From a virus: 64,000 bases of DNA. The stretch's first letter is position 1. The number at the start of each line of letters is the position of its first letter. The notes under the pieces are model-generated. The model was not told the origin of the DNA. It made no database searches and saw nothing but the letters and a program-made list of their open reading frames with translations. Positions 9,430-43,898 of this stretch are shown piece after piece. Both the position numbers and the translations under genes were made by a program. The stretch is taken from positions 1 through 64,000 of IMG/VR virus record IMGVR_UViG_3300048014_000057; one strand, written 5' to 3'.

Positions 9430-10055
9430 TAAAATTTAAAGAATTATTTCAAAAAAAATTAAATGAAAAAAATGGAGATGAAGAAACCGATCCTCTTCAT
9501 TCTTCTTTATCTAGACATTATAAATTTAATGATAAAAATCATAAAGATAATATTTATAAATATACCACTGATTCTTATGCGGTTAATAACCATTTATGGA
9601 AAAAAAATAAGAATTTAGAAGAAACGGATGACGAAAAAGAAAATTTTAACCATCCTCTTACACCAAAAATTAATCATTTAGATTCTGCATTAAATAAGCA
9701 CAAAACTCCTCATTCATTAACTGTTTATTCTGGTACTCGGCATGATCCAAATAAATTAAAAGATGAAAATGGAATTGTCGATCATCCTTCTTATCTTTCT
9801 ACCTCATTAAGTTTAGGAATGGGCAAATCATTTGCAGAAGTACAAAAAGGTAATATTAGGCATGTTATGTGTATTAATGTTCCTAAAGATCATCCTGGGG
9901 CTTATGTTGCAAACATTTCCGATAAACCAGAGGAAAGAGAATTTATTTTACCTAGAGGAACTAGGTTAAAACATGAAGGAACTGATGTACATTCTGAAAA
10001 ACATAAAATATATGGAAATTTAAAGGTTCATTATCATAGGATGTCTATAGTTTGA
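9426..10055 (+). CDS. ADP-ribosyltransferase (VIP2/Alt-like)
   Basis: YT.DSY.VNNHL, TVYSG, YLSTSLS, EEREFILPRG motifs. Confidence 0.85.
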   Translation: MIKFKELFQKKLNEKNGDEETDPLHSSLSRHYKFNDKNHKDNIYKYTTDSYAVNNHLWKKNKNLEETDDEKENFNHPLTPKINHLDSALNKHKTPHSLTVYSGTRHDPNKLKDENGIVDHPSYLSTSLSLGMGKSFAEVQKGNIRHVMCINVPKDHPGAYVANISDKPEEREFILPRGTRLKHEGTDVHSEKHKIYGNLKVHYHRMSIV

Positions 10056-13000
10056 CGAATACATTATTTAGTTATAGAGGTAAAGAAGGTCTAAAGAAAA
10101 GTGGTGCCAAATTAAATTGGACCAAAGAACTTATTGCGGAATATGTAAAATGTCGTGATGATGTTGTATATTTTGCAGAACATTATTTTAAAATTGTGGT
10201 AGAAAAAGGTTTTGAATTAATAAAATTACGTGATTATCAAATAGAAATGCTTAAATCCATGCAGGAAAATAGATTTAGTTTGTTTTGTTGTGCAAGACAA
10301 TCAGGTAAAACCGAGGTATTTCGTATTTTTATTACACATTATATTCTTTTTAATGAATATAAAACTGTTGCTATTTTGGCTAACAAAGCGGAAACTGCCA
10401 GAGAAATTCTTTCTAAATTACAATTATCCTATCAAAATCTTCCTATTTGGCTTCAATTGGCAGTCAAAGACTTTAATAAAGGTACATTTACATTAGAAAA
10501 TAATTCTAGAATTATAGCAACTTCTACTTCGAAAAACTCTGCGCGAGGATTTACGGCACATTGTGTTATACTTGACGAAGCAGCTTTCATTGAAAATTTT
10601 GATGAATTTTATTCGGCAGTTTATCCTGTAATTTCTGCTGGCGTAGAAACAAAAATTATCATGGTTTCTTGTGTTGCAGATGATACTTATATTTTTACCG
10701 ATAAAGGTATAAAACAGGTAAGAGATTTTATTGATAAATCTAAACCAGAAAATCCGAATATTGGTTATGAAATTGAAAATTATTCGGTAGAAGGAAAATC
10801 AGGAATTAATCATGGAAATATTATGGTTAATTCTGGAAAAGCACCAACAAAAATCATAATAAGTAAATCATCCGAAATTGAATGTTCTTATAATCATAAA
10901 TTATGGGCTTGTAAAAATGGAATATTTGATTGGTTTAAATCTGAAGAATTAGAAGAAGGAGACTATATTTCTGTAAAATATGGAATGAATTTATGGGGAA
11001 ATAATGATTTAATAGAATTTAAAAATAAAAATAAAAAAATATGGAGAGATATAAATTATTTTCAATATCCAGAAAAAATTGATAAAAATCTATCTTATTT
11101 TCTAGGTTTATATTTAGCAAAAGGATATACAGATTCTAAAAGAGGTAGAACTATTATAACTTGTGGTGATGATATTTCAGAATCAATTACTAATATCGGA
11201 TTAACTTTTACAAAACATGATAAAGTTCATTATAATATTTCTTCTAAATATTTTACTGAATTTTTAGAAACATTAGGATTTGATACTTCCAAAAAGGCCA
11301 AGGAAAAAACTTTACCTTCTAAAATAATGGAATTATCCGAATATAATATTTGTAATTTTCTATCTGGATATTTTGATGGAGATGGATGTATTACCCAAAA
11401 AGGAAGAATTACCTTAACATCTACTTCAGTAAAAATGATAAAACAAATAAGAATGTTACTTTTAAATTTAGGTATAAGAACACAATTATATAATCGTTTT
11501 ACGGTTCCTTCTAAAAAAGTTAGAGTTTCTTCTCACGTCTGGATATTAGAAATATGTTCGTATGAAGATATTAAATTATTCTCGGAAAAAATAGGATTTA
11601 GATTAAAAAGAAAATCAGATAGATTTATATTCAATAAACCTCCTTCCAAAAATATTACCAAGGATATTATTCCTTGGGGAAGAGAATATTTTAAAAATAA
11701 AGGTTTTGAAATAAAAGAAACATCTGATCTAAAAAGAATTCCTCATATTTCTAGAAAAAAATGTTTAGAAATAGAAAATCTAAGACAATTTGATTCTATA
11801 TTAGATGAAAAAATCTGTTGGGAAAAAATAAAAAAAATAGAAAATTCAGAAAATTATGTCTATGATTTTTCTTTAAATGATATAGAAAATGATTCTTGGT
11901 GCCATTCTGTTCTTTACAACGGAATTGTAGGACATCAGACACCAAATTCCTTAAACCATTTTTACGATTTTTGGCAAGGAGCACAGGCGGGAACTAATGG
12001 GTTTAATCCTATATTTGTTCCTTGGTATAGAGTTCCTGGTAGAGATGAAAAATGGAAAAAACAAACACTTGAAGGTATTAATAATGATCTAGAAAAATTT
12101 GCAGTTGAATTCGAATGTTCTTTCATTGGTTCATCTTCTACTTTAATATCTGGTCATAAATTAAAACAATTAATAACTATGTATAAACAACCATTAGTAA
12201 AAGATGATAATTTAAAATTAAATATGTATGAAAGACCTATTGGTGAATTGGTAAGAATGAATGATAATGTAAAAGAAGTTTTACCACCACATAAATATTT
12301 TCTTATTGCAGATGTATCCAGAGGAAAAGGATCAGATTATTCTGCATTTTCTGTTATTGATTGTACAGAACTTCCTTATAAACAAGTTTGTACATTTAGA
12401 GACAATGAGATATCTCCTGCTGATTATGCAGAAATAATTTATAAAACAGCTACTATTTATAATGCAGCCAATGTATTAGTAGAAATTAATGATATTGGAG
12501 AACAAATTGGTTATATGTTAATGATGGAATTTGGTTATGAAAATGTTCTTTGTACAGAAACATCTTCAACAAAAGGTAAAAGAATAACTTTTGGAGGCAA
12601 AAAAGCAGACAAAGGAATTAGAACTACTAAATTTGTTAAAGCTCTTGGGTGTTCTTTTCTTAAACTTCTCATAGAACAAGATAAAATTTTAATATATGAT
12701 CAAGAAACAGTCAATGAATTAACAACATTTTCCAAGAAAAAATTATCCTATGAAGCTGAACATGGAAAACATGATGATTTAGTCATGGGTTTGGTTTTAT
12801 TTGCATGGCTTACGGATCAAAATTATTTTAAAGAATTTACTGAAATTAATACTATTATGTCTTTTCGAGAAAATAACGAAGAAGACATTAATAATAAATT
12901 AACACCATTTGGATTTATTCATGGAATTTTAGGACCACCAAAAAAATATAAAGAATATTATGAAATTCATAATATGAATATTCCATTCAGAGAATTTGTG

Positions 13001-13078
13001 GAAGAAGTTGAAATTGGTAGAAGAGAAATATTTGATAATGTAGTTTGGGAATATGCGGAATATAATCCCAGATATTAA
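10052..13078 (+). CDS. gp17: Terminase large subunit gp17 with intein
   Basis: LRDYQ, ARQSGKT Walker A, ILDEAAF Walker B, ADVSRGKGSDYS nuclease motif, HDDLVM. Confidence 0.97.
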   Translation: MTNTLFSYRGKEGLKKSGAKLNWTKELIAEYVKCRDDVVYFAEHYFKIVVEKGFELIKLRDYQIEMLKSMQENRFSLFCCARQSGKTEVFRIFITHYILFNEYKTVAILANKAETAREILSKLQLSYQNLPIWLQLAVKDFNKGTFTLENNSRIIATSTSKNSARGFTAHCVILDEAAFIENFDEFYSAVYPVISAGVETKIIMVSCVADDTYIFTDKGIKQVRDFIDKSKPENPNIGYEIENYSVEGKSGINHGNIMVNSGKAPTKIIISKSSEIECSYNHKLWACKNGIFDWFKSEELEEGDYISVKYGMNLWGNNDLIEFKNKNKKIWRDINYFQYPEKIDKNLSYFLGLYLAKGYTDSKRGRTIITCGDDISESITNIGLTFTKHDKVHYNISSKYFTEFLETLGFDTSKKAKEKTLPSKIMELSEYNICNFLSGYFDGDGCITQKGRITLTSTSVKMIKQIRMLLLNLGIRTQLYNRFTVPSKKVRVSSHVWILEICSYEDIKLFSEKIGFRLKRKSDRFIFNKPPSKNITKDIIPWGREYFKNKGFEIKETSDLKRIPHISRKKCLEIENLRQFDSILDEKICWEKIKKIENSENYVYDFSLNDIENDSWCHSVLYNGIVGHQTPNSLNHFYDFWQGAQAGTNGFNPIFVPWYRVPGRDEKWKKQTLEGINNDLEKFAVEFECSFIGSSSTLISGHKLKQLITMYKQPLVKDDNLKLNMYERPIGELVRMNDNVKEVLPPHKYFLIADVSRGKGSDYSAFSVIDCTELPYKQVCTFRDNEISPADYAEIIYKTATIYNAANVLVEINDIGEQIGYMLMMEFGYENVLCTETSSTKGKRITFGGKKADKGIRTTKFVKALGCSFLKLLIEQDKILIYDQETVNELTTFSKKKLSYEAEHGKHDDLVMGLVLFAWLTDQNYFKEFTEINTIMSFRENNEEDINNKLTPFGFIHGILGPPKKYKEYYEIHNMNIPFREFVEEVEIGRREIFDNVVWEYAEYNPRY
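10670..11938 (+). mobile_element. Intein (423 aa) with LAGLIDADG endonuclease, C-terminal His-Gln
   Basis: KIIMVS|CVADDT ... NGIVGHQ|TPN restores the conserved S-T-P-N coupling motif. Internal FLGLYLAKG and FLSGYFDGDG. Confidence 0.92.
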
Positions 13079-13084
13079 AAATAA

Positions 13085-13145
13085 AAAATAAAAAAAAATA
13101 TAAAAACTTTCACCTACTTAAGGAAATTTTTGAAAGTTTTTATAT
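13085..13145 (-). terminator. Intrinsic terminator
   Basis: 15-bp inverted repeat 13098-13112/13131-13145 followed on the minus strand by long T-runs. Confidence 0.75.
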
Positions 13146-13633
13146 AAGAGATGGTTCCTATTATCTGACATTTTAAGGAACATTCTACTTGTCAATGAGC
13201 TAGTCAGTCTTTCGCCATTGACCAAAGAATTCTTCACAGAACCTTGGCATCTCTTAAGGAAGCATTCTGTCACGTTAGCCTCTATTTTAGGCTTCTTAAA
13301 TTCCCTGACAGATGGGCGATAGCTAGACACTATCCTTTTTCCACATGCTTCATTAAGAGAGAACAGTTATATAAAGGATGTTCAGCCTTTAGTAAATCTT
13401 TTTTAACGAGGGGTTACAATTCATCCTCACATGATAGGGTCTACATTTTAGTCTCCTGGGTTAATATCCTGATTTTTATCCTTTCAAAAACCAGTAAAAA
13501 ACTTGTTTATTATTCCAATATATAATTTTATATTTTTGCCATTTATGAGTATCTAGGAAAAATTAAACCATGATAACCTCATATTTATTTAGGTTAATCT
13601 GCTAGATTTTAGTTTGTTCTCTCTTGAACGTCC
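13090..13633 (-). ncRNA. Putative large structured ncRNA (~540 nt), family unassigned
   Basis: Bounded by late-promoter motif GATAAATA (13641-13634) and a 15-bp hairpin plus T-run. More than ten complementary segments; no credible ORF. Confidence 0.7.
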
Positions 13634-13641
13634 TATTTATC
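13634..13641 (-). promoter_or_regulatory. T4-type late promoter (G/A)ATAAATA
   Basis: Same motif precedes tmRNA (43851-43858), tRNA-Asn (51793-51800), gp18 (14932-14939) and gp23 (32535-32542); resembles the T4 gp55 TATAAATA box. Confidence 0.7.
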
Positions 13642-13647
13642 TCACAT

Positions 13648-14022
13648 TCAAGTTTCTAAGTCAACACCTTTTTCCTTAAAAACTTCAAAATAAATGTCTA
13701 TATCATCATTAGAAATATAATCTTTTAGATATAAATCTTCCATTTTTCTTCTTTTTTGTTCAAGATAATTAATATCTCTAATAATATTTCTCATAGAAAA
13801 ATTTAAAACTAATATATTTTTTAGATGATAAAAAGTTTTGGAAAAATTTTCTCCAAATAAATCTTCTAAAGAATGTAGATATTCTTCTTTAGTTTTTTTG
13901 GAATTATAAGCATATCTTGCATCATTTTCCCAACGAAAAAATTCTTCTATTTTTGTAAACTCACAAGTATTAAGAAAATATTGTGCTTCTTGACCTTGTA
14001 CTATTAAATTTCCATTTTTCAT
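13648..14022 (-). CDS. Hypothetical protein
   Basis: 124-aa ORF coupled to the upstream endonuclease gene. Confidence 0.6.
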   Translation of the reverse strand: MKNGNLIVQGQEAQYFLNTCEFTKIEEFFRWENDARYAYNSKKTKEEYLHSLEDLFGENFSKTFYHLKNILVLNFSMRNIIRDINYLEQKRRKMEDLYLKDYISNDDIDIYFEVFKEKGVDLET

Positions 14023-14831
14023 TTTAGTCTTCCTTTTATAAAACCATTATTAATATAATTTTCAAATTCTTCTTTTTTGATAATTTTTGTTACTATCTCA
14101 TTATTAATCTGAATTCTCCCTTTTATAGAATTTTCAGGATTAAATTTCTTTTCTTTCATTGTTATTCCTTTTCTATAACCCAATGAAATATAAAAATCAA
14201 GCATTTCTTCATCTACTTGGGTATTATGTACCCCATTGGTTATTCTAATTTTTCCAAATAAAGGATTTTTAGAACCAGATAATTTTCCTTTATTAGCCTG
14301 AGAAATTTTATTTTTAGTTTCTTGGGAATGTGGAATATCTTTATTATAAGCTGGTTTACCAAAAAAAGGATGATTTTTCCCTACCATAAGTCCCATATGT
14401 GCTTCTGATTTCTTTTTTCTGGTTTCTTTGGATTCTTTTTTTCCATATTTAGGATGATTTTCACCAAATTGTCCTTTTAGTCCACCGATTTTTCCAAAAT
14501 TAGGATTCGTATTACCAAACATTTCTCTTCCAAAAAATCCATTAGGTGCAGCCAAAGACATATTAATATAGTTTTCAGATTTTACTACATCACAACCGAT
14601 TTGTAATTCATATTCTGATTGTAATGCTTCCTCACGAGTTTCGAATTCCTTGATTATTTCACTTTTGAATAATTCAGGATGCTCTTTTAATTCAGATTTC
14701 CAAATATCTTTATATTTCATAGATTTTACACTTCCATGATACCCATTTTTTATTTTTTCCATGGAAGTAGAACCAAGATACCACTTAGGTAATTTATCTC
14801 CTGAATAAGTTGTTAAATACGTACAATACAT
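14019..14831 (-). CDS. GIY-YIG-type homing endonuclease with NUMOD3 repeats
   Basis: YCTY.TTY...WYLGS, Y.GS, E.A...E, YIN; NUMOD3 repeats (HP.YGKK.SKETRKKKSE, HSQETKNKISQA). Confidence 0.85.
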   Translation of the reverse strand: MYCTYLTTYSGDKLPKWYLGSTSMEKIKNGYHGSVKSMKYKDIWKSELKEHPELFKSEIIKEFETREEALQSEYELQIGCDVVKSENYINMSLAAPNGFFGREMFGNTNPNFGKIGGLKGQFGENHPKYGKKESKETRKKKSEAHMGLMVGKNHPFFGKPAYNKDIPHSQETKNKISQANKGKLSGSKNPLFGKIRITNGVHNTQVDEEMLDFYISLGYRKGITMKEKKFNPENSIKGRIQINNEIVTKIIKKEEFENYINNGFIKGRLK

Positions 14832-14983
14832 TTAATTATTATTTTTCCTTTCTTTTTTTAATATTGGTAATCTAACTTCGTAAATGAAAATGAGTCAAGA
14901 AAAATTCCCATAATTCTAAAAATCCTATAATAATAAATAATTTAGAAAACAATTAGAATTATTAGAAGGAGTTATATCAAACC

Positions 14984-43501: not shown

Positions 43502-43572
43502 AAATTCTATAATAGGAAGAAAATTACAAACTAGAGAAGATGGAAGTAAATATTGGAAATATCCTGATAAAA

Positions 43573-43846
43573 GTGGGGAGATTCTGTTACTAGGCTCTCC
43601 CCCTATGCCCTAGTTAGAGATTATGCACAGAGTGCAAAACCTTCAACAAATGCAACTTCATTATCATTTGCATTTACAGTTTTATTCCGTTAACGGAGGT
43701 TTCCCCCGATAGACTACTCATTTCCTTCATCTAGCAATCGATCCTGTTCGAGCCCATCAACAAAACACCTTAATGTACTCTTGGTGGACTCGCGGACATA
43801 CGCTAGTCCGGTCTTGCCAAGATTATCTAAATGTATCAACATCTAT
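43573..43846 (-). ncRNA. ssrA: Permuted two-piece tmRNA (alphaproteobacterial type), tag ANDNEVAFVEGFALCA
   Basis: Acceptor piece ends CGAGTCCACCA (43782); 26-nt intervening segment; coding piece starts GGGCTCG (43755) giving G3:U70; resume codon GCA after TAAAT; tag at 43671-43621. Outer ends approximate. Confidence 0.9.
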
Positions 43847-43898
43847 CCTTTATTTATCTCATAAAATCTTTTACAAGTCAAGAAAAAAATAAAAAAAA

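Follow-up and report, generated by a model that had tools for sequence, protein, structure and literature searches.

Does the longest non-coding gap in the genome of an uncultured marine T4-like phage hold a gene for a structured RNA, and if so, of what kind? The question concerns positions 13079-13647 of the window, i.e., of the whole stretch of DNA that was analyzed, which comprises the first 64 kb of the 144,859-bp virus record IMGVR_UViG_3300048014_000057 (27% GC). A preliminary description of this DNA had proposed that the gap behind gp17, the gene of the terminase large subunit, is free of credible open reading frames (ORFs) and encodes on its minus strand a large, ornately structured RNA of about 540 nt, expressed late and with a role in packaging, scaffolding, or as a decoy. 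The gap is real, and the stretch is non-coding. We put the probability at roughly 0.5 that it constitutes an orphan non-coding transcription unit of about 535 nt, read from the minus strand and forming the tail of a lineage-specific homing-endonuclease insertion; an ornate RNA of the ROOL/GOLLD type it is not. What stands of the proposed RNA gene is a non-coding candidate with its own minus-strand promoter and terminator that matches no described family, whereas the ornate fold is not supported.

Transcription signals of a non-coding gap

The features that delimit the candidate are the following:

13079-13647: gap of 569 bp, from the gp17 stop codon to the stop codon of a minus-strand ORF of 124 amino acids (ORF124); the longest non-coding gap in the genome
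13634-13664, minus strand: composite promoter of 31 nt, TTGACTT-N13-TGAGATAAATA, with its -35 box within the last codons of ORF124
13090-13627, minus strand: predicted primary transcript of about 535 nt, its start placed about 7 nt past the -10 box and its end in the T-run of the terminator
13582-13589, minus strand: second late-box-like motif, AATAAATA, inside the 5' leader
13481-13627, minus strand: AT-rich 5' third of the predicted transcript, GC content about 0.25, no stable structure
13089-13145, minus strand: intrinsic terminator, a 15-bp A-U-rich hairpin (13131-13145/13098-13112) followed by T9 (13097-13089); probability 0.98

The expectation that this part of an otherwise gene-dense genome lacks a credible ORF is borne out. 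A codon log-odds score trained on 71 long ORFs of the genome gives +0.57 for pieces of real genes (5th percentile +0.29) and between -0.30 and -0.46 for the frames of the gap; the GC content at third codon positions (GC3) is 0.35-0.44 in these frames vs. 0.08-0.15 in gp17, gp18, ORF124 and the adjoining homing-endonuclease gene (HEG). The core of the gap shows no 3-base GC periodicity, which indicates that it is not a decayed native gene.

On the minus strand, a TTGACT -35 box (13664-13659) is followed by a 17-nt spacer ending in TGA (13644-13642) and by the 8-mer GATAAATA (13641-13634); the promoter thus reads TTGACT-N17-GATAAA(TA) with a TG at -14/-15, and its TG-extended -10 box overlaps a late-box-like ATAAATA. 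The 8-mer had been noticed before as the start of the element and as a motif common to tmRNA and tRNA-Asn, and it does precede the tmRNA and the split tRNA-Asn of this phage. The 8-mer alone is weak evidence, with 8 copies in the window vs. 13.7 expected; the 31-nt context is decisive. The composite TTGACTT-N13-TGAGATAAATA occurs exactly twice in the 144.9-kb genome, at 13664-13634 and at 43881-43851 before the tmRNA, vs. about 8e-5 occurrences per genome that we estimate from base composition. The 13-nt spacers of the two copies differ at most positions; the composite boxes are therefore conserved and not recently duplicated. Among all IMG/VR viral contigs the composite has 2 matches, both in GC-richer, coding-like sequence without an Rfam hit.

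From its sequence, the promoter looks like one of the host sigma-70 type with a late-box-like -10 box rather than a pure late promoter. It is possibly read both early and late, and it suggests a special class of dual promoters for stable RNAs in this phage. The proposal that the element is expressed only late does not hold in this form, since early or dual expression is as likely. The second late-box-like motif, AATAAATA, is the main late-promoter-like motif of the genome (26 of 67 copies are intergenic), and the copies listed lie mostly 17-45 nt upstream of gene starts, including those of gp18 and gp20 (e.g., 14932, 21151, 31278, and 32535 on the plus strand). By comparison, only 1 of 40 copies of the T4 consensus TATAAATA is intergenic; the usual late-type box of this phage is AATAAATA instead.

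The downstream end is equally distinct. A 15-bp hairpin and T-run had been reported on the minus strand and are present there, with a run of nine T; the T-run belongs to the minus strand only, and the plus-strand sequence behind the hairpin reads AAGAG. A -35 and a -10 box at 17-nt spacing, joined to an intrinsic terminator on the same strand, define a bacterial-type transcription unit, and this gap has both. The minus strand carries more G than C and more A than T, which agrees with transcription of this strand. In silico, the case for a separate minus-strand unit of about 535 nt is a good one.

Base composition sets the gap apart as well. Of the non-coding gaps in this genome, 23 measure 150 nt or more, and only four of these exceed a GC content of 0.40 in their best 150-nt window; one is the present gap (0.43), and the others hold tRNA-Cys, the tmRNA, and tRNA-Met/Tyr. 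In the remaining 19 the best window reaches at most 0.33, and whole gaps mostly range from 0.15 to 0.24. The core retains a GC content of 0.36-0.43, in contrast to the AT-rich native codon use of the adjoining ORF124 and HEG; as these neighbors are AT-adapted, the retained GC content of the core would point to selection on the sequence rather than to a cassette that arrived recently.

Folding, repeats and known RNA families

The preliminary description had inferred a large ornate structure from seven complementary segments, two of which cross and would form a pseudoknot, and had taken G-U pairs as favoring the minus strand. The most probable elements of the predicted fold are instead the following:

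13250-13360, minus strand: three-way junction with a closing helix of 15 pairs (two 7-bp runs around a U-C mismatch; 13345-13360/13250-13265); pair probabilities 0.89-0.99
13469-13494, minus strand: 10-bp hairpin with two G-U pairs and an AAAGGA loop; mean pair probability 0.89; present in the minimum-free-energy and centroid structures
13191-13222, minus strand: 9-bp hairpin GUCAAUGGC/GCUCAUUGAC; pair probability 0.98; it includes the previously listed pairing 13191-97/13216-22
13154-13181, minus strand: 6-bp hairpin GUUCCU/AGGAAC with a 16-nt loop; pair probability 0.97

The two arms of the junction span 13318-13334 and 13266-13312, and the second arm bears a hairpin at 13277-13293. All seven segments exist as written (13324-34/13433-43 with one mismatch), but their frequency is at chance level, and while the pairings 13191-97/13216-22 and 13266-72/13306-12 belong to the high-probability ensemble, the other five do not. 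The pseudoknot is not upheld, as both of its crossing pairs compete with the much more probable three-way junction. When perfect complementary segments were counted in 13150-13641, with the terminator left out, the numbers of segments of at least 6, 7, 8, and 9 bp equaled those in dinucleotide shuffles, and segments of at least 10 bp occurred in 17% of the shuffles.

Folding energies were likewise compared with dinucleotide shuffles, a check that had been set beforehand. The whole region gives z-scores of -2.64 on the minus and -2.80 on the plus strand, mostly due to the terminator; the 161 nt at 13481-13641, which contain the 5' third, give +0.49. The positive control, the tmRNA of the phage itself, reaches -3.26. 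For most of the element the folding energy is no better than that of the shuffles. Since both strands fold about equally well, neither folding nor G-U pairs decide the strand. Outside the junction of about 110 nt and the terminator, structure is at chance level, and the original argument from pairings, pseudoknot and z-score does not stand alone.

Several short motifs recur within the candidate. On the minus strand, UUCCUUAA occurs three times (13125, 13180, and 13261) and includes the complement of AAGGAA, a hexamer that ranks among the most frequent ones where ribosomes would bind upstream of the genes of this phage; CUAAAAU also occurs three times (13290, 13451, and 13612), and TTAAGGAA is found three times on the plus strand of the gap. 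The enrichment of short repeats (UUCCUUAA, CUAAAAU, and AGGAU) is nominal and borderline after multiple testing. A scan for the three-copy UUCCUUAA pattern returned 78 chance loci in AT-rich or tandem-repeat sequence and no homologous locus. A GGA-rich sponge in the manner of CsrB was rejected; GGA is not enriched, and the four copies of AGGAU are enriched only nominally.

The novelty of the candidate relative to Rfam, where ROOL, GOLLD, OLE, HEARO, RNase P, and group I and II introns had been named as families to check, holds. Searches with cmscan at the gathering thresholds and at E-values up to 10, on the 64-kb window and on segments of 1.2 and 0.56 kb, matched no family in the region; against all 4227 families of Rfam 15, positions 13085-13645 and 12900-14100 yielded only far sub-threshold noise from snoRNA, miRNA, and sRNA models (12-21 bits). 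GOLLD, OLE, HEARO, raiA, and the other large-RNA families of Rfam 15, the four named ones presumably being among its models, gave no covariance-model match by cmscan. For ROOL, whose model we take to be RF03087, there was no match library-wide and none in a targeted genome search at E-values up to 10, in which the control genomes also remained unmatched. ARAGORN and Rfam find no tRNA or tmRNA in 13079-13647, though they find them elsewhere in the window, and a targeted search with one group II domain model found nothing in the region. The candidate has no described family, and it belongs with the phage-encoded non-coding RNAs of unknown function.

Two classical ribozymes were considered and rejected. 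The RNase P RNA model (RF00010) has no match in the genome at E-values up to 10, whereas positive controls were matched, and the resemblance suggested by an ACAGAA string plus a helix encloses only 78 nt, vs. about 280 nt in the P4 criterion. A short AGACUAAAAUGU string presumably resembles the P7/J7-3 region of group I introns; yet the group I model (RF00028) has no match in the region, and its sole weak match in the genome (8.5 bits) lies elsewhere. The minus strand offers no interrupted host gene, as the flanks are antisense gp17 and gp18 and contain no split ORF or RNA gene; a 5' half is missing, the would-be P7 partner is unpaired, and the 152 nt upstream of the HEG are plain AT-rich promoter sequence.

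The surrounding insertion

The neighborhood of the candidate is composed as follows:

10052-13078, plus strand: gp17, terminase large subunit, stop codon at 13078
13079-14983, minus strand: lineage-specific insertion of 1.9 kb between the stop codon of gp17 and the start of gp18
13648-14022, minus strand: ORF124, an orphan protein of 124 amino acids; its start overlaps the HEG stop (ATGA)
14019-14831, minus strand: free-standing HEG, T4 Seg-like, with an N-terminal GIY-YIG-type sequence and NUMOD3 repeats
14984, plus strand: start of gp18

All contents of the insertion, i.e., the non-coding unit, ORF124, and the GIY-YIG/NUMOD3 homing endonuclease, lie on the minus strand. In every one of the 124 related loci with both gp17 and gp18, these two genes abut directly, and the endonuclease, ORF124, and the gap sequence are present in none of them; positions 13079-14983 are therefore a lineage-specific insertion outside the conserved assembly module. 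The role in assembly, packaging, or scaffolding that had been proposed for the RNA loses its footing here, because the region is absent from these 124 loci and sits in a homing-endonuclease insertion. The same layout recurs in independent Logan assemblies, where the gene caller leaves the gap empty. No close isolate is at hand: in the phage collection, the C-terminus of the terminase large subunit (TerL) reaches at most 49% identity, and closer relatives sought through gp17 among viral and metagenome contigs reach 58% at best, none of them with the insertion.

The endonuclease matches Pfam NUMOD3 (E-value 1.2e-11) and PHROG families of homing or HNH endonucleases (E-value 4e-35), with its GIY-YIG motif read by eye from the translation and unscored. 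NUMOD3 repeats, a position between conserved genes, and absence from relatives mark Seg-like cassettes, and all three are found here. Its 207 homologues share 34-69% identity over part of their length, and many of those with a named source come from T4-like phages; they occur in varied T4-like contexts, without a tail such as the one studied here. ORF124 has native codon use (codon score +0.52, GC3 0.08); it matches only itself among 5.8 billion proteins and no Pfam or PHROG family above threshold. On another contig, a 45%-identical endonuclease is likewise followed by an overlapping ORF (L146:1000-1401), of 133 amino acids and no known family. Both ORFs may encode small partners of Seg-like endonucleases without being related to each other.

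The packaging gene gp17 itself contains a LAGLIDADG intein of about 400 amino acids (Pfam Intein_splicing and LAGLIDADG_3), and thus has mobile elements both within it and immediately adjoining it. It has no plus-strand intrinsic terminator, as the hairpin at 13098-13145 is followed by AAGAG in that direction; one would therefore expect late transcripts of gp17 to continue in antisense orientation across the RNA region, ORF124, and the HEG. This predicted read-through recalls the CfrI antisense RNA of cyanophage S-PM2.

Elsewhere in the genome, the phage carries a permuted tmRNA of the alphaproteobacterial type and several tRNAs (Rfam, ARAGORN); Melnitz-like phages and pelagimyophages are known to have two-piece tmRNAs (PMC9004378). 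Some tRNA-like genes are unusually long, with 93 nt in one called Tyr (anticodon ATA) and 92 nt in one called Ile (anticodon TAT), and one Rfam tRNA match (33.7 bits) is not called by ARAGORN. These odd loci (genome positions 71924-72016, 87399-87490, and 79213-79292; in our locus coordinates L140:8924-9016, L141:5399-5490, and L140:16213-16292) may be intron-bearing or otherwise unusual, like the split tRNA-Asn of the preliminary description.

Readings of the candidate and known counterparts

If the gap is a transcription unit, transcription would start near 13627 from the TTGACT -35 box, the 17-nt spacer, and the TG-extended GATAAATA -10 box. Host sigma-70 polymerase would probably read this promoter early, and late reading is possible since the -10 box resembles the late box. 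Transcription would stop at the hairpin and T9 (13145-13089), which would also shield gp17 from minus-strand transcription. In the product, an AT-rich 5' third devoid of stable structure would precede GC-rich sequence (13150-13480) that bears the three-way junction along with three hairpins; this 3' part is probably functional, perhaps after processing, and could act in trans as a stable RNA made alongside the tmRNA. The neighborhood suggests that it may have spread by co-conversion as cargo of the endonuclease. A link to translation is a low-confidence guess for the function of such a trans-acting RNA, made because of the tmRNA-type promoter and the three UUCCUUAA motifs. The fuller version of this idea, a novel class of non-coding phage RNAs about 0.3-0.5 kb in length that is co-regulated with the tmRNA through a dual promoter, travels as endonuclease cargo, and acts on the translation apparatus, possibly through UUCCUUAA motifs carrying the complement of AAGGAA, is in our estimate a long shot.

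As a caveat, a number of results weigh against a functional transcription unit. Homologous DNA was found neither by blastn against the phage database, nor when 135 related loci and the remainder of the genome were searched with blastn, nhmmer, and tblastx, nor in two related large viral records, and exact 20- to 21-mers of the region are absent from the viral and prokaryotic contig collections. A single-sequence covariance model of the candidate (R1; 216 nt, 65 pairs) matches nothing but itself, whether in 72 sources comprising the window, the remaining genome, and related loci, in 36 related viral records, or in 3 contigs with HEG homologues. As no homologue was found, the candidate draws no support from conservation or covariation, and its absence from the 124 related loci implies that the region is dispensable for the T4-like core. 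The 331-nt core (13150-13480) folds no better than its shuffles (z-scores of -1.18 on the minus and -0.77 on the plus strand). The 121-nt window of the junction has a z-score of -3.80, a value that 0.8% of 120-nt windows placed at random in the genome also attain; with window choice taken into account, this is roughly a 1-in-10 event for a region of such size and not significant. Finally, the endonuclease operon needs a terminator anyway, and transcription signals can persist after the gene that they once flanked is gone.

A rival explanation that we regard as somewhat unlikely is that the stretch is a non-functional tail: a leftover spacer or 3' untranslated region of the HEG cassette, or foreign or decayed DNA that recombination brought along, transcribed by read-through only and with promoter boxes that are a relic or have nothing downstream to serve. 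Its location in a mobile insertion that is specific to the lineage and missing from 124 relatives would be as expected, as would an orphan sequence whose core has a chance-level folding energy and whose complementary segments are no more frequent than by chance; the HEG homologues elsewhere, which lack such a tail, fit as well. However, neutral DNA in this genome drifts to a GC content of 0.15-0.24, and the core keeps its 0.36-0.43 next to fully adapted neighbors; no remnant of an earlier reading frame is seen, and the composite promoter shared with the tmRNA is too specific for chance and points into the stretch. These same features speak for the orphan transcription unit. The RNA first proposed, large, ornate and about 540 nt long, similar in kind to ROOL or GOLLD, with a pseudoknot and long-range pairings and with a late role in packaging, scaffolding, or as a decoy, has become very unlikely. 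Its size, the phage setting, and the lack of coding potential fit, the listed segments exist, and the whole-region z-score of -2.64 seemed to agree; yet this z-score vanishes without the terminator, the segments occur at chance frequency with five of seven outside the probable ensemble, Rfam offers no match, and the region lies outside the conserved assembly module.

A coding reading, either as an unrecognized small protein gene or as a recently broken foreign gene, would have to use the longest frame of the gap (108 codons, 13199-13525, plus strand) or a frame of 82 codons (13118-13366, minus strand), and is close to refuted. A stop-free frame of 108 codons is mildly unexpected in 570 nt of such composition (p about 0.06 by our own estimate), but it has no ATG and only a TTG start, before which no Shine-Dalgarno sequence or other ribosome-binding site is visible by eye, and the negative codon scores go with a GC3 of about 0.36-0.39. 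No protein homologue of the gap frames was found in Pfam, PHROGs, tblastn of phage records, or a 5.8-billion word search. The single marginal phmmer match to the 108-residue frame among 1.84 billion representatives, P0122, is a tandem-repeat artefact; it has 575 amino acids in five identical 107-residue repeats, with 12 of 31 identities per repeat, and probably reflects an open frame that runs through a tandem DNA repeat of 321 nt. An element acting at the level of DNA, such as a protein-binding, recombination, or homing site of the cassette, or an insulator between convergent gp17 and HEG transcription, seems to us hardly probable. The stretch does lie between convergent units, its terminator works in one direction, and TTAAGGAA recurs three times on the plus strand; such a role, however, needs no 330 nt of raised GC content, the repeats are borderline after multiple testing, and the dedicated inward promoter would stay unexplained.

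If the RNA proves real, an abundant type of marine T4-like phage would have a second stable RNA beside its tmRNA, switched on by the unusual tmRNA-type promoter and riding on a homing-endonuclease cassette; it would provide a concrete case of selfish endonucleases that move non-coding RNA cargo, and a new handle on how phages of this type manipulate host translation. For the present, the candidate is one orphan sequence from one uncultured lineage, and its value is that of a well-delimited candidate, with exact coordinates of promoter, start, terminator, and domains, and not that of an established RNA class.

Known systems provide partial counterparts. Group I introns with GIY-YIG ORFs, such as T4 td with I-TevI, similarly place an I-TevI-like endonuclease beside GC-rich non-coding sequence; unlike them, the region studied here has no Intron_gpI match, no exons, and no P7 pairing. 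ROOL and GOLLD are large non-coding RNAs of phages and prophages with unknown function, and the candidate resembles them in its size of about 0.5 kb, its non-coding nature, and its setting in a phage genome with tRNA and tmRNA genes; in contrast to these families, it lacks an Rfam match, an excess of structure, homologues, and a multi-domain conserved architecture. CfrI of cyanophage S-PM2 is an antisense RNA that links psbA to a homing-endonuclease gene; like the transcript predicted here, it is a non-coding RNA beside a homing-endonuclease gene in a marine T4-like phage. The present unit, however, does not overlap the HEG, but lies downstream of it on the same strand, and is about twice as long as CfrI.

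Free-standing GIY-YIG cassettes of the Seg type are known from T4-like phages, for example segB within the tRNA gene cluster of T4. The insertion studied here shares with them a GIY-YIG/NUMOD3 endonuclease between conserved core genes that is absent from relatives, and by analogy the adjoining RNA gene could be co-converted as cargo; in contrast to the segB cassette, the RNA beside this HEG is not a tRNA and belongs to no known family. The remaining counterpart is found in the same genome. The candidate has neither sequence nor covariance-model similarity to the phage's own permuted tmRNA gene (43572-43885), no tRNA-like domain or tag frame was found in it, and its core has a folding z-score of -1.18 compared to -3.26 for the tmRNA. 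Yet both resemble each other as minus-strand, non-coding units of the stable-RNA type that form GC islands in a genome of 27% GC, and both are preceded by the same rare promoter design, TTGACTT-N13-TGAGATAAATA.

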